In this document: in pieces, positions 11,315 to 28,423 of the stretch
Layout of the letters: the number at the start of each line of letters is the position of its first letter
Position numbering within the stretch: the first letter of the stretch is position 1
Assembly (NCBI RefSeq): GCF_030384885.1
Contig: NZ_CP128613.1
Reading direction: 5' to 3' (one strand)
Origin: Escherichia coli
Lineage (GTDB): Bacteria; Pseudomonadota; Gammaproteobacteria; Enterobacterales; Enterobacteriaceae
Length of the DNA stretch: 64,000 nt
Notes under the pieces: model-generated
The model's input: the letters and a program-made list of their open reading frames with translations, nothing else
Told to the model about the DNA's origin: nothing
Databases searched by the model: none
Made by a program: the position numbers and the translations under genes

Positions 11315-11380
11315 TCTCTTTCAAAAAGATAATCCAGGTTTCGCGCCTGGATTATCTGATTCAACCACGGAGGGTTGAAG

Positions 11381-11836
11381 ATGGCTAAATCCCGTTTCAC
11401 AGATAAGCAAATTGCTGAAATTTTACAGCGGTCAAAAGAGGGGGCATCTAATAAGGAGCTTTGTGAACACTATCAATTTAGCGTTAACACGCTGCGGCGC
11501 TGGCAAGAACAGCACGCTGACGGCATCAGAAGCGAATTAAAAAAAATAGAATCTAAAGCACAGATCGTCTTTCTGCTTTTCATTGCTATTGTCATTATAC
11601 TCACGCTTATATTTGGTAAACCTACAGGTGGATGGGCAATACCGCCTTTATTACTCTATTGTGTTTATTATATCCGCCTGTATCGCAACATCTCCGCCAG
11701 ACATATAAAAAAAGAAGACATTTTTCTCTCTCGTTCTGTTAATAACAGCTATAGCGCCCTTTATAATTTGAGCTGGACGTTTATTTGTTTTTTTATTTTT
11801 GCAGTAATCTATTTTTTTATTCAGGTGTTTTCGTAA
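11381..11836 (+). CDS. Hypothetical protein: N-terminal transposase-like HTH fused to a two-helix membrane segment
   Basis: ATG 11381 with GGAGGG RBS; N-terminus (FTDKQIAEIL...LCEHYQFSVNTLRRWQ) resembles IS3-family OrfA HTH, C-terminus hydrophobic; AT-rich. Confidence 0.5.
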   Translation: MAKSRFTDKQIAEILQRSKEGASNKELCEHYQFSVNTLRRWQEQHADGIRSELKKIESKAQIVFLLFIAIVIILTLIFGKPTGGWAIPPLLLYCVYYIRLYRNISARHIKKEDIFLSRSVNNSYSALYNLSWTFICFFIFAVIYFFIQVFS

Positions 11837-11880
11837 CAGACTGACCTGAAAGAGTATTTCAGGCCAGCTTCATCACTTGC

Positions 11881-14577: not shown

Positions 14578-14717
14578 AAGGAGTCCCTCCGCACTGACTG
14601 AAACAGTGCAGAAATGTCTTCAGGCGTGGCGAAGCCTTACCTGAAGGTAATAAAGCTGAGCTGGGACGTTAAAACGTCACGGCCTTACGCATCCGGTAAC
14701 GCCGTGAAAAGACGGGC
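14578..14717 (-). promoter_or_regulatory. mgtA 5-prime leader (Mg2+/proline-responsive attenuator region) between mgtL and mgtA
   Basis: Position between the mgtL stop and the mgtA start; established leader architecture. Confidence 0.7.
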
Positions 14718-14771
14718 TTACCGGAAAAGTTTTAATCTCCGTCGAGGGAGAGGCGTGGGATCAGGTTCCAT
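14718..14771 (-). CDS. mgtL: mgtA leader peptide
   Basis: 17-codon proline-rich [20 protein letters not shown] upstream of mgtA. Confidence 0.82.
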
Positions 14772-14864
14772 ATAACCTCCGATAAGTGAAAAAAGCGCCG
14801 CAAATAATAAGGAGAATCCAATAATATTCGTGGCATTTATGGCGATATAATACCTACTGGCAAC

Positions 14865-19539: not shown

Positions 19540-21678
19540 ATGACACCGCATGTGATGAAACGAGACGGCTGCAAAGTGCCGTTTAAATCAGAGCGCATCA
19601 AAGAAGCGATTCTGCGTGCAGCTAAAGCAGCGGAAGTCGATGATGCAGATTATTGCGCCACTGTTGCCGCGGTTGTCAGCGAGCAGATGCAGGGCCGCAG
19701 CCAGGTGGATATCAACGAGATCCAGACCGCCGTTGAAAACCAGCTGATGTCGGGTCCATACAAACAACTGGCTCGTGCTTACATCGAGTACCGTCACGAT
19801 CGCGATATTGAACGTGAAAAACGCGGTCGCCTGAATCAGGAGATCCGTGGTCTGGTCGAGCAGACCAACGCCTCGTTGCTCAACGAAAACGCCAACAAAG
19901 ACAGCAAGGTGATTCCAACCCAGCGCGACCTGCTGGCCGGGATTGTGGCTAAACACTATGCACGTCAGCACCTGCTGCCGCGTGACGTGGTGCAGGCGCA
20001 TGAGCGTGGCGATATTCACTATCACGATCTCGATTACTCGCCGTTCTTCCCGATGTTCAACTGCATGTTGATCGACCTGAAAGGTATGCTGACCCAGGGC
20101 TTTAAGATGGGTAACGCCGAGATTGAACCACCGAAGTCGATCTCTACGGCAACCGCGGTAACAGCGCAGATTATTGCTCAGGTCGCCAGTCATATTTATG
20201 GCGGCACCACCATTAACCGTATCGATGAAGTGCTGGCACCGTTTGTCACCGCCAGCTACAACAAACACCGCAAGACCGCAGAAGAGTGGAACATCCCGGA
20301 CGCCGAAGGTTACGCTAACTCTCGTACCATCAAAGAGTGCTACGATGCCTTCCAGTCGCTGGAGTACGAAGTAAACACCCTGCACACCGCCAACGGTCAA
20401 ACACCGTTTGTGACCTTTGGTTTTGGTCTGGGCACCAGCTGGGAGTCTCGCCTGATTCAGGAGTCTATCCTGCGTAACCGTATCGCGGGCCTCGGTAAAA
20501 ACCGTAAAACTGCGGTGTTCCCGAAACTGGTGTTTGCGATTCGCGATGGCCTGAACCATAAAAAAGGCGATCCGAACTACGACATCAAACAGCTGGCGCT
20601 GGAGTGCGCAAGCAAGCGCATGTATCCAGATATCCTGAACTACGATCAGGTAGTGAAAGTCACCGGTTCGTTTAAAACCCCGATGGGCTGCCGCAGCTTC
20701 CTCGGCGTGTGGGAAAATGAAAACGGCGAACAGATCCACGATGGTCGTAACAACCTCGGCGTGATCAGCCTGAACCTGCCGCGCATTGCGCTGGAAGCGA
20801 AAGGCGATGAGGCCACCTTCTGGAAGCTGCTGGATGAACGTCTGGTGCTGGCACGTAAGGCGCTGATGACCCGTATCGCTCGTCTCGAAGGCGTTAAAGC
20901 GCGCGTGGCCCCGATCCTCTATATGGAAGGTGCTTGTGGCGTTCGTCTGAATGCTGACGACGACGTTTCTGAAATCTTCAAAAACGGTCGTGCGTCTATT
21001 TCGCTGGGTTACATCGGCATCCACGAAACCATTAACGCGCTGTTTGGCGGCGAGCATGTGTATGACAACGAGCAGCTGCGCGCGAAAGGTATCGCCATTG
21101 TTGAACGTCTGCGTCAGGCGGTGGATCAGTGGAAAGAAGAAACGGGTTACGGTTTTAGCCTTTACAGCACGCCAAGTGAAAACCTGTGCGACCGCTTCTG
21201 CCGTCTCGATACCGCGGAGTTTGGCGTGGTGCCGGGCGTGACTGATAAAGGTTACTACACCAACAGTTTCCACCTCGATGTGGAGAAGAAGGTGAACCCG
21301 TACGACAAGATCGACTTTGAAGCGCCTTACCCGCCGCTGGCGAACGGTGGCTTCATTTGCTACGGCGAATATCCAAACATTCAGCACAACCTGAAGGCGC
21401 TGGAAGATGTCTGGGATTACAGCTATCAGCATGTACCGTATTACGGCACCAATACGCCGATTGATGAGTGTTACGAGTGTGGTTTTACCGGTGAGTTTGA
21501 GTGCACCAGTAAAGGCTTCACCTGCCCGAAATGTGGTAACCATGACGCCTCCCGTGTGTCGGTGACTCGCCGCGTGTGCGGATATTTAGGTAGCCCGGAT
21601 GCGCGTCCGTTTAACGCTGGTAAGCAGGAAGAAGTTAAGCGCCGCGTTAAACATTTGGGAAATGGGCAGATCGGTTAA
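19540..21678 (+). CDS. nrdD: Anaerobic ribonucleoside-triphosphate reductase
   Basis: 712-aa ORF with N-terminal ATP-cone and C-terminal glycyl-radical region and zinc cysteines (CYECGF...CPKCG). Confidence 0.97.
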   Translation: MTPHVMKRDGCKVPFKSERIKEAILRAAKAAEVDDADYCATVAAVVSEQMQGRSQVDINEIQTAVENQLMSGPYKQLARAYIEYRHDRDIEREKRGRLNQEIRGLVEQTNASLLNENANKDSKVIPTQRDLLAGIVAKHYARQHLLPRDVVQAHERGDIHYHDLDYSPFFPMFNCMLIDLKGMLTQGFKMGNAEIEPPKSISTATAVTAQIIAQVASHIYGGTTINRIDEVLAPFVTASYNKHRKTAEEWNIPDAEGYANSRTIKECYDAFQSLEYEVNTLHTANGQTPFVTFGFGLGTSWESRLIQESILRNRIAGLGKNRKTAVFPKLVFAIRDGLNHKKGDPNYDIKQLALECASKRMYPDILNYDQVVKVTGSFKTPMGCRSFLGVWENENGEQIHDGRNNLGVISLNLPRIALEAKGDEATFWKLLDERLVLARKALMTRIARLEGVKARVAPILYMEGACGVRLNADDDVSEIFKNGRASISLGYIGIHETINALFGGEHVYDNEQLRAKGIAIVERLRQAVDQWKEETGYGFSLYSTPSENLCDRFCRLDTAEFGVVPGVTDKGYYTNSFHLDVEKKVNPYDKIDFEAPYPPLANGGFICYGEYPNIQHNLKALEDVWDYSYQHVPYYGTNTPIDECYECGFTGEFECTSKGFTCPKCGNHDASRVSVTRRVCGYLGSPDARPFNAGKQEEVKRRVKHLGNGQIG

Positions 21679-21699
21679 TCTTCACTCTGCGCTAAGCAA

Positions 21700-21832
21700 A
21701 TGCCGGATGTGGCGTAAACGCCTTATCCGGCCTACATTTGGCAACGGCTGTAGGCCTGATAAGACGCAACAGCGTCGCATCAGGCGTTGATTGCCTGATA
21801 CCGCCTACACGCGGACTGATAAGCCAGGCGAA
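21700..21832. repeat. BIME/REP cluster between nrdD and nrdG
   Basis: Multiple REP units (gccggatgtggcgtaaacgccttatccggcctaca..., taggcctgataagacgc...gcgtcgcatcaggc). Confidence 0.85.
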
Positions 21833-21835
21833 ATA

Positions 21836-22300
21836 ATGAATTATCATCAGTACTATCCTGTCGACATCGTCAACGGCCCCGGCACTCGCTGCACCCTGTT
21901 TGTCTCCGGGTGTGTTCATGAATGCCCCGGTTGCTATAACAAAAGCACCTGGCGGGTAAATTCCGGTCAGCCATTTACCAAAGCAATGGAAGACCAGATC
22001 ATTAACGATCTGAATGACACCCGCATCAAACGCCAGGGTATTTCCCTCTCCGGCGGCGATCCGCTGCATCCGCAAAACGTGCCGGATATTCTAAAACTGG
22101 TACAACGCATCCGCGCCGAATGTCCGGGTAAAGACATCTGGGTGTGGACAGGCTATAAATTCGACGAACTCAACGCTGCGCAAATGCAGGTTGTTGATTT
22201 GATTAACGTGCTGGTCGACGGCAAATTTATGCAGGATCTAAAAGACCCTTCCCTGATCTGGCGCGGCAGCAGCAATCAGGTGGTGCATCATTTGCGTTAG
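21836..22300 (+). CDS. nrdG: Anaerobic ribonucleotide reductase activating protein (radical SAM)
   Basis: 154 aa from MNYHQYYPVDIVNGPGTRC... with the CxxxCxxC radical-SAM cluster motif. Confidence 0.93.
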   Translation: MNYHQYYPVDIVNGPGTRCTLFVSGCVHECPGCYNKSTWRVNSGQPFTKAMEDQIINDLNDTRIKRQGISLSGGDPLHPQNVPDILKLVQRIRAECPGKDIWVWTGYKFDELNAAQMQVVDLINVLVDGKFMQDLKDPSLIWRGSSNQVVHHLR

Positions 22301-22540
22301 TCACTCATCCAGCCGGACCTTAATGGCCTCCTGTGGGTTGGCCAGTCGTTCCCTGACAGTGCGTAACAAGGCTTCTTCACTATCACTGACAGTGAGCGTT
22401 TTTACCGGCATTCGTCCATTTTCCGCAACGTACTGAAACAGCAGCCGCACTGCTTCAGTAGGCGTGATATTTAATTTTTCCAGCACCGCATAAGCCTCAT
22501 TTTTCAGTTTGTCATCCAGGCGGACGTTAAGTGTGGCCAT
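22301..22540 (-). CDS. RelB/DinJ-family ribbon-helix-helix antitoxin-like protein (no adjacent toxin gene)
   Basis: 79 aa; MATLNVRLDDKLKNEAYAVLEKL...TPTEAVRLLFQYVAENGRMP closely parallels RelB; GGAGG RBS; convergent with nrdG. Confidence 0.6.
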   Translation of the reverse strand: MATLNVRLDDKLKNEAYAVLEKLNITPTEAVRLLFQYVAENGRMPVKTLTVSDSEEALLRTVRERLANPQEAIKVRLDE

Positions 22541-25191: not shown

Positions 25192-25312
25192 TTTGCCGGA
25201 TGCGGTGCACCTGTAGGCCTGATAAGACGCATCAAGCGTCGCATCAGGCACTATGCTCAAATGCCGGATGCGGCGTGAACGCCTTATCCGGCCTACACAC
25301 ACTATATCAGGC
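25192..25312. repeat. BIME/REP cluster between yjgA and mpl
   Basis: gccggatgcggtgcacctgtaggcctgataagacgc...atgccggatgcggcgtgaacgccttatccggcctaca. Confidence 0.85.
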
Positions 25313-27907: not shown

Positions 27908-28423
27908 TCAATTAACAAAGGTTAATTTGACTCGTTTAGATACGCAAAAATAGGGGATCCAGATTGCAAGATGGATGATACTTTTCAGAAGCTCCCATGC
28001 ATCTGTCAATTCAAATGAGGCATTAAGAAAGTGCATTGTCCCCCAAATATCAGCCACAATGAATGCAAACAGTGACAGAAGAAGGGCAATATAATACTGT
28101 GGAAGCTGGCGTTTTTTGTTAAAAAACAAATAAGTAGTATAAATCAACAGCAGAAACAAAACGGCAAATCCGGCGGTTTCCAGATAAAGTGCCGTCCTGA
28201 GCGGTTCTTCGTAAATTACGCGAGTAAGCCCCCAAGTATGGATAATTGAATACGCGTTCGCAAGAATACCAAGCACTAAACCAATTGCCGGCAGAAATAG
28301 CCAGCCGCCAATCCCTGTAAGCTTTTTATCCGCACAACTTTTACAATAATCGTCAGGTGGTAAAACAGCCACACCACAGTTTTTACATGTTGTTTGTAAT
28401 TCTTCGCCGTCCTTCACCCACAT
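27908..28423 (-). CDS. Hypothetical zinc-ribbon membrane protein
   Basis: 171-aa ORF: N-terminal CxxC-N10-CxxC (CKNCGVAVLPPDDYCKSC) followed by about four hydrophobic helices; AT-rich (roughly 42 percent GC). Confidence 0.5.
   Translation of the reverse strand: MWVKDGEELQTTCKNCGVAVLPPDDYCKSCADKKLTGIGGWLFLPAIGLVLGILANAYSIIHTWGLTRVIYEEPLRTALYLETAGFAVLFLLLIYTTYLFFNKKRQLPQYYIALLLSLFAFIVADIWGTMHFLNASFELTDAWELLKSIIHLAIWIPYFCVSKRVKLTFVN

Follow-up and report, generated by a model that had tools for sequence, protein, structure and literature searches.

A BIME-2-type REP cluster, probably a decayed array, in the nrdD-nrdG spacer of Escherichia coli, and turnover of unrelated repeat families in the orthologous spacer

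A REP is defined by a GTAG lying directly 5' of the foot of an imperfect palindrome of 30-40 nt with a conserved bulge, and a BIME-2 by y and z2 units separated by short linkers, in a copy number that varies between strains (PMC3333891, PMC8266576); for BIME-1 we use the definition given in PMC3333891. REP325, the yjdM-yjdN element from which the Rfam family naRNA4 (RF02564) was built, consists of 12 units and is reported (Harris et al. 2026 preprint) both to stabilise mRNA and to terminate transcription partially in a Rho-dependent way. According to the same preprint, tandem gene pairs that contain a REP have upstream-biased expression genome-wide (median log ratio 0.96 versus -0.09), and putting a REP behind a reporter gene stabilises the message in some cases only, with a large dependence on context. 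Here we describe a REP cluster in the spacer between nrdD and nrdG of Escherichia coli. It shares with REP325 the alternating Z2 and Y hairpins inside an operon, and it differs from REP325 in having fewer units and in scoring below the naRNA4 gathering score; the stabiliser and terminator activity of REP325 has experimental support. The REP of the malE-malF spacer, which is said to be a stabiliser, likewise places hairpins between two genes of an operon, after the one that is expressed more highly; the corresponding effect on nrdDG is a predicted one. Like the BIME-2 elements of Gilson and Bachellier (Ton-Hoang et al. 2012, PMC3333891), the nrdDG cluster has alternating Y and Z2 units, short linkers and a number of units that varies between strains, and it departs from the BIME-2 tandem arrays in being a single complete Y-Z2 followed by a collapsed Y remnant. 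We found no literature on nrdD, nrdG and REP together, and none with locus-specific expression, half-life or 3'-end data. The feature was known before, and annotating it in this way is correct but routine; mildly new is that unrelated repeat families replace one another in a single intra-operon spacer.

The window is a stretch of 64,000 nucleotides of E. coli DNA. We took the CDS coordinates from RefSeq NZ_CP027579.1 2945999-3009998 (Escherichia coli 2013C-4282, 100% identical to the window), and checked the transferred CDSs one by one for start codon, stop codon and frame. To find REP units, both strands of the whole 64 kb were scanned by edit distance to the Y, Z1 and Z2 consensus sequences, accepting up to 25% edits; the Z1 consensus is the one that we take to be standard. 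The Y and Z2 consensus sequences agree with printed REPs (Nunvar et al. 2010, Table 1, and the REP crystallised by Messing et al. 2012). The scan reports 12 units, two at each of six sites (2936-3027, 21702-21785, 25214-25296, 32001-32083, 41033-41130 and 47957-48032) and zero elsewhere, where 30 shuffled windows give 0-2 hits each. All 12 hits are extragenic when set against the verified CDS coordinates. The 14-mer of the REP tail, CTTATCMGGCCTAC, is present nine times in the window with at most two mismatches, against 0.41 expected, and nine or more copies occur in 0 of 100 shuffles. In 5284 E. coli records, a 141-nt query over the focal units finds 40 or more matching places in each genome. 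The Rfam naRNA4 model, with a gathering score of 59.5, passes at 25216-25293 (86.2 bits) and at 32004-32080 (63.6 bits); at the focal site it stays under that score, with 39.9, 37.0 and 33.7 bits.

These results bear out most of the initial annotation, which had placed REP/BIME elements at six intergenic sites and had named a REP consensus search as the check. REP-derived palindromes are present at all six positions, and with the consensus search the elements match, all 12 units falling within the six sites. Their description as ordinary E. coli features agrees with the GTAG, the extragenic location, the inverted pairs (a BIME organisation) and the high repetition in E. coli genomes. The two sites said to be inside operons, the focal one (nrdD>nrdG) and site 4 (ytfQ>ytfR), do lie between co-directional genes.

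The focal spacer has 157 nt (21679-21835) and separates nrdD (19540-21678, +) from nrdG (21836-22300, +), both of them verified RefSeq CDSs. Its first unit is a Y-type REP at 21702-21735 with the GTAG on the minus strand, where it appears as CTAC at 21732-21735 of the plus strand; the plus strand, and with it the mRNA, reads GCCGGATGTGGCGTAAACGCCTTATCCGGCCTAC. This Y unit is 2 edits away from the Y consensus, agrees at 32/35 positions with the K-12 Y REP of Nunvar et al. 2010 and at 30/32 with the REP crystallised by Messing et al. 2012, and has the predicted fold ((((((((.((((....)))).)))))))), a 12-bp hairpin with one bulge at -20.4 kcal/mol. A linker of 14 nt (21736-21749, ATTTGGCAACGGCT) joins the GTAG-proximal ends of the Y unit and of the second unit, a Z2-type REP at 21750-21785 (+, GTAGGCCTGATAAGACGCAACAGCGTCGCATCAGGC) whose GTAG is intact at 21750-21753. 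The Z2 unit is also 2 edits away from its consensus, with 33/37 positions in agreement with the Z2-type REP of Nunvar et al. 2010, and its predicted fold (((((((..(((((....)))))..))))))) is a hairpin at -19.7 kcal/mol. After a 7-nt linker, GTTGATT (21786-21792), there is an internally deleted Y-type remnant of 16 nt on the minus strand (21793-21808, GCCTGATACCGCCTAC; in K-12, ACCGGATGCAGCCTAC). The remnant retains the head and the CCTAC tail of a Y unit, with 82% identity to the tail of the full one, and the centre of its hairpin is gone. The spacer thus has the composition of a BIME-2, Y (-) and Z2 (+) in inverse orientation across a 14-nt linker, and its tandem copies amount to one full Y-Z2 unit and the Y remnant, which fits a decayed BIME-2 array better than a clear tandem one. 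The focal element is a predicted member of the non-autonomous repeat family that TnpA-REP, a single-copy Y1 transposase, recognises by GTAG and a bulged hairpin.

The interval initially given for the focal element, 21700-21832, is REP as far as 21808, and its last part (21809-21832) is better read as leader of nrdG. We assign the leader and ribosome-binding region of nrdG to 21809-21835 (+, ACGCGGACTGATAAGCCAGGCGAAATA). Among nine E. coli strains 26 of these 27 positions are invariant, the segment is also present in E. albertii, and a comparison by eye with the Salmonella and C. braakii leader GCGCGAATTGATAAGC finds 13 of 15 positions alike. The segment looks like the head of a REP, and we had considered 21809-21829 as a fourth, Z-type REP remnant, a candidate dropped after the comparison with the E. 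albertii, Salmonella and C. braakii leaders; going by the sequence, 21809-21835 is probably not REP-derived and is a leader instead. Taken as such, it moves the end of the REP-derived part from 21832 to 21808. We also rejected a third hairpin, at about 21791-21831, that would mask the ribosome-binding site of nrdG: it is not conserved, and two K-12 changes in its 5' arm would break the pairing.

We aligned the spacer of this strain with those of 8 other strains. The K-12 counterpart, whose name REP338 we infer from numbering alone (REP336 and REP339 bracket the nrdG-nrdD element), has the same spacer, the same length of 157 nt and the same order of units, with 91.7% identity over the spacer against 96.7% for nrdD and 97.4% for nrdG; it differs in its Z2 unit, where CCAG replaces GTAG. 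The linker at 21736-21749 is variable, with a 2-nt insertion in E105 and other sequence in 14EC017 and K-12. In EC42405 the central 23 nt of Z2 are absent. Upstream of the full Y unit, O157:H7 carries one more REP-like unit and then GTTGATT, and this recurrence of GTTGATT ahead of Y indicates a periodic array of the form Y-linker-Z2-linker. In E. albertii there is one full Y unit only, with the same CCTAC-ACGCGG junction to the downstream sequence. Taken together, the extra unit of O157:H7 and the single Y of E. albertii point to a BIME-2-type array in differing states of expansion and decay, in line with what Ton-Hoang et al. 2012 describe for BIME-2.

The same spacer exists in E. coli in a second form that has no REP. 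This REP-free allele is found in 409 of 5426 complete E. coli genomes (about 7.5%), and consists of an unrelated 186 nt with a boxC-like palindrome, CCCTCTCCC...GGGAGAGGG, and an nrdG leader, GGCGTCAATTGAGAAGCGAAA-ATG, that resembles the leaders of other genera.

In the REP-bearing form, the stems are better preserved than the rest. The Y and Z2 hairpins retain all 24 of their stem pairs in 8 distinct E. coli alleles, with 23 pairs invariant (including 12/12 in Y) and one, in Z2, changed from C-G to U-G; the substitutions otherwise affect bulge, loop and linker positions and the GTAG. Among these 8 alleles we see no compensatory base changes in the Y and Z2 stems. With no compensatory covariation, the preservation of the stems is neither proof nor exclusion of selection on structure; instead of selection, the recent shared ancestry of the alleles or a homogenisation of REP copies could have preserved them.

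Repeats also occupy the orthologous spacer in other genera. Starting from 80 nrdG loci of Enterobacteriaceae species representatives, we located the stop codon of nrdD in 74 and analysed the nrdD-nrdG spacer only. Its length ranges from 56 to 902 nt with a median of 163.5 nt, and the fold z-score, calculated against dinucleotide shuffles, is below -2 in 68 of the 74 species. The ERIC core, probed with the standard ERIC-PCR primer pair, is present in 31/74 spacers, GTAG plus a palindrome (REP-like) in 28/74, and a boxC-like motif in another 28/74, where the pattern CCTCTCCC...GGGAGAGG is what we take to be boxC, a recognised E. coli repeat family. In 69 species at least one of the three repeats is found, and in 5 none of the three. 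Like the focal element, the ERIC/IRU and boxC elements of other Enterobacteriaceae and of the REP-free E. coli genomes are small and strongly folding and sit at the same position; they belong to unrelated sequence families. A search of the spacers of other genera with Rfam gives no family covering ERIC or boxC, and one weak, irrelevant match to V_AS5. The spacer of Superficieibacter electus, of 362 nt, has five REP-like units. Our impression is that the nrdD-nrdG spacer is a hotspot for repeats.

The main rival to an effect on expression is that the REP/BIME is a neutral passenger: the spacer would simply tolerate the arrival of small selfish repeats, and selection would act on no effect of theirs on nrdDG expression. 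We regard this as a serious possibility, if short of an even one. It would account for a spacer that is dimorphic within E. coli, for the gain and loss of units, the deletions of hairpin centres and the loss of GTAG in K-12, for the faster divergence of the spacer than of the flanking genes, for the lack of compensatory covariation, and for the different repeat families that the same spacer holds in different genera. It sits less well with a strongly folding element in nearly every species and a spacer that is never shorter than 56 nt, with stem pairs that are all kept while bulge, loop and linker positions vary, and with the expression of REP-containing tandem gene pairs, which across the genome favours the upstream gene. 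The loss of GTAG in K-12 and of the Z2 hairpin in one strain indicates that the specific element is dispensable, and since the sequence constraint is weak, much of it may be tolerated selfish DNA.

A different reading gives weight to the occupancy of the spacer in 69 of the 74 species and to the two wholly different alleles within E. coli. These suggest selection for some stable transcribed hairpin, with REP/BIME, ERIC and boxC-like elements as swappable parts that would set the NrdD:NrdG ratio, a proposal that we make tentatively and think rather unlikely to hold. If true, the BIME and the REP-free alleles would be naturally occurring variants in the regulation of anaerobic ribonucleotide reduction. 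The turnover of repeats in this spacer, from strain to strain and from genus to genus, is a natural experiment from which one could learn whether REPs inside operons adjust the ratio of enzyme to activase.

On the observed identity, architecture, repetitiveness, predicted folding, polymorphism and stem preservation of the element, we are highly confident that the best overall explanation is a BIME-2-type REP cluster in the transcribed nrdDG spacer, for which we infer an effect on nrdD and nrdG expression by analogy with malE-malF and REP325. The spacer RNA has a predicted fold of -66.9 kcal/mol (z = -4.66 relative to shuffled sequences) with separate Y and Z2 hairpins. We find no sigma-70-like promoter and no intrinsic (T-run) terminator in 21500-22000, and with neither between the two genes, nrdG relies on read-through from nrdD. 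In a table derived from SEnd-seq, the terminator downstream of nrdG is labelled with the unit 'nrdD:nrdG:pmbA'. The model that we propose is as follows. The nrdDG transcript would carry two stable bulged hairpins right after the stop codon of nrdD. As in the analogous systems, these hairpins might block 3'-to-5' exonucleases and so protect the nrdD mRNA, and might also make some of the transcription pause or end in a manner that depends on Rho, leaving less read-through into nrdG. The nrdD message would then outlast and outnumber that of nrdG, an excess that would fit a requirement for more of the enzyme NrdD than of its activase NrdG. The number of units at this locus changes between strains through the gain of units and the deletion of hairpin centres. 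Against this model stand the context-dependence of REPs, the REP-free alleles of about 7.5% of genomes, the GTAG lost in K-12, the Z2 hairpin lost in one strain, and the lack of compensatory changes.

The cluster could instead act as DNA, as a site for a protein (DNA gyrase or DNA polymerase I) or in nucleoid organisation of the HU/naRNA type, rather than as an RNA element. Y plus Z2 is the composition of BIME-2, the class that reportedly binds gyrase and DNA polymerase I, and the sub-threshold naRNA4 matches, at 37-40 bits, also point to such a role. We nevertheless consider it clearly improbable: the focal site misses the Rfam gathering score of 59.5, it has one full Y-Z2 unit only, and for REP325 itself, as the Harris et al. 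2026 preprint reports, neither compaction of the nucleoid nor REP-REP contacts could be measured. It is hardly credible that the focal palindromes mark the end of a mobile element, form a CRISPR array, or act as an intrinsic terminator or as an internal promoter for nrdG, since what speaks for it is only that they are G+C-rich, while the interval 21500-22000 lacks terminator and promoter-like sites, the units alternate in orientation across linkers of 7-14 nt, number just two and a half and recur at no fewer than 40 dispersed places per genome, and the nearest 'transposase' (11381-11836) is 10 kb off and is of the HTH_Tnp_1 rather than the Y1/RAYT kind. The initial warning not to mistake these repeats for CRISPR repeats or mobile-element ends is well founded for all six sites, with their 2-3 units each in alternating orientation and their dispersed copies. 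The reading that we prefer for the focal site remains that of a BIME-2-type cluster in a transcribed spacer.

The K-12 counterparts of the six elements carry names, and the elements are thus already catalogued. REP334 (ytfH-cpdB), REP335 (msrA-paeA), REP336 (ytfQ-ytfR), REP339 (mgtA-ridA) and REP340 (rraB-yjgM) are names from the supplement of Harris et al. (bioRxiv 2026); REP337, for the yjgA-mpl element, is again our reading of the numbering alone. Site 1 (REP340; 2936-3018, -) lies between the convergent genes yjgM and rraB and has 99.3% identity to K-12. It includes a degenerate Y at 2936-2969, with GTTG in place of GTAG, and half a Z1 at 2999-3018. Site 3 (REP337 by numbering; 25196-25296), between the convergent yjgA and mpl, consists of a partial Y (25196-25209), a Z2 (25213-25249, +) and a Y of perfect consensus (25263-25296, -). 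Site 4 (REP336; 32001-32083), between ytfR and ytfQ within the ytfQRT-yjfF operon, has a Z2 (+) and a Y (-). Both units lack the GTAG in this strain, which has GTGC and GGCC instead, and their hairpins remain; the spacer has 74.8% identity to K-12 where the flanking genes have about 95.6%.

Site 5 (REP335; 41033-41130) is between msrA and paeA, which are co-directional and separately transcribed. A Y (41033-41066, -) and a Z1 (41102-41130, +) are separated by an L linker of 35 nt that holds a predicted IHF-like site, AATTCAATGTATTG. By a hand count this site matches 12 of the 13 positions of WATCAANNNNTTR, which we take to be the IHF consensus. From these sequence features, a single copy of y + z1 with a long L linker and a putative IHF site, we class site 5 as a BIME-1. 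Site 6 (REP334; 47939-48032), between the convergent cpdB and ytfH, has three diverged units: a REP end fragment (47939-47948), a divergent Y/Z-like unit (47957-47992, -) and a unit of Z1 length (48004-48032, +). At two of the sites a stop codon is very close to a REP. The stop codon of ytfH (48035-48037) is 2 nt from the REP foot at site 6, and that of rraB (3019-3021) abuts the half Z1 of site 1. A REP at most 15 nt from a stop codon is said to lower translation through ribosome stalling.

The initial annotation also held that REPs explain most of the palindromic structure of the non-coding DNA of the window. We made a census of hairpins with a crude inverted-repeat search over the 6837 nt of intergenic DNA, merging those that overlap, a step by which REP clusters are somewhat undercounted. 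This results in 37 non-overlapping hairpins, 6 of them flagged as REP; a seventh REP-related hairpin, at 21777-21801, spans an arm of the focal Z2 and the Y remnant. Amongst the 20 hairpins with a dG of -15 kcal/mol or stronger, 5 are REP, and the four most stable are all REP. Counted from coordinates, REP-derived DNA makes up about 566 of the 6837 intergenic nt (8%). The claim is therefore correct for the most stable hairpins; for palindromes in general, only about a quarter are REP and 'most' is overstated. The hairpins that are not REP look like intrinsic terminators or leader structures for the most part. The main value of the annotation is that these palindromes can be masked as REP/BIME rather than taken for terminators, sRNA genes, CRISPR repeats or IS ends.

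Other features of the window deserve mention. The K-12 BIME-1 REP339 (ridA-mgtA) is absent here, and the spacer at 11315-11880 holds an ORF of 151 aa (11381-11836) annotated 'transposase'. We considered this ORF as a RAYT (REP-associated Y1) and rejected it: Pfam finds HTH_Tnp_1 only, at the N terminus, with no Y1_Tnp and no NCBIfam match. By eye it has a hydrophobic tail, and it belongs neither to the RAYTs nor to the IS200-type enzymes. No RAYT gene is found within the window. Next to the focal operon, a RelB/DinJ-family antitoxin gene (22301-22540, -) ends where nrdG ends, with adjacent stop codons, and has no toxin gene beside it. Other E. coli have about 280 nt more at this locus, with an annotated RelE toxin, and the gene here looks like an orphan antitoxin left after a deletion of relE. 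Three RNAs score above their Rfam gathering scores: the Mg2+ riboswitch of the mgtA leader (14671-14786, -), STnc450 (41189-41246, +), which closely follows the BIME-1 of site 5 and precedes paeA, and the sRNA ES239 (45844-45966, -), between cysQ and cpdB. The gene content differs from K-12 in a DUF2569 gene (27908-28423, -) between fbp and yjfF and in the absence of the chpS-chpB toxin-antitoxin pair between ppa and ytfP (33910-34287). Beyond ytfB, the segment 54433-64000 is occupied by a cluster of a TetR gene, a fatty-acid-type enzyme and a TRAP transporter.
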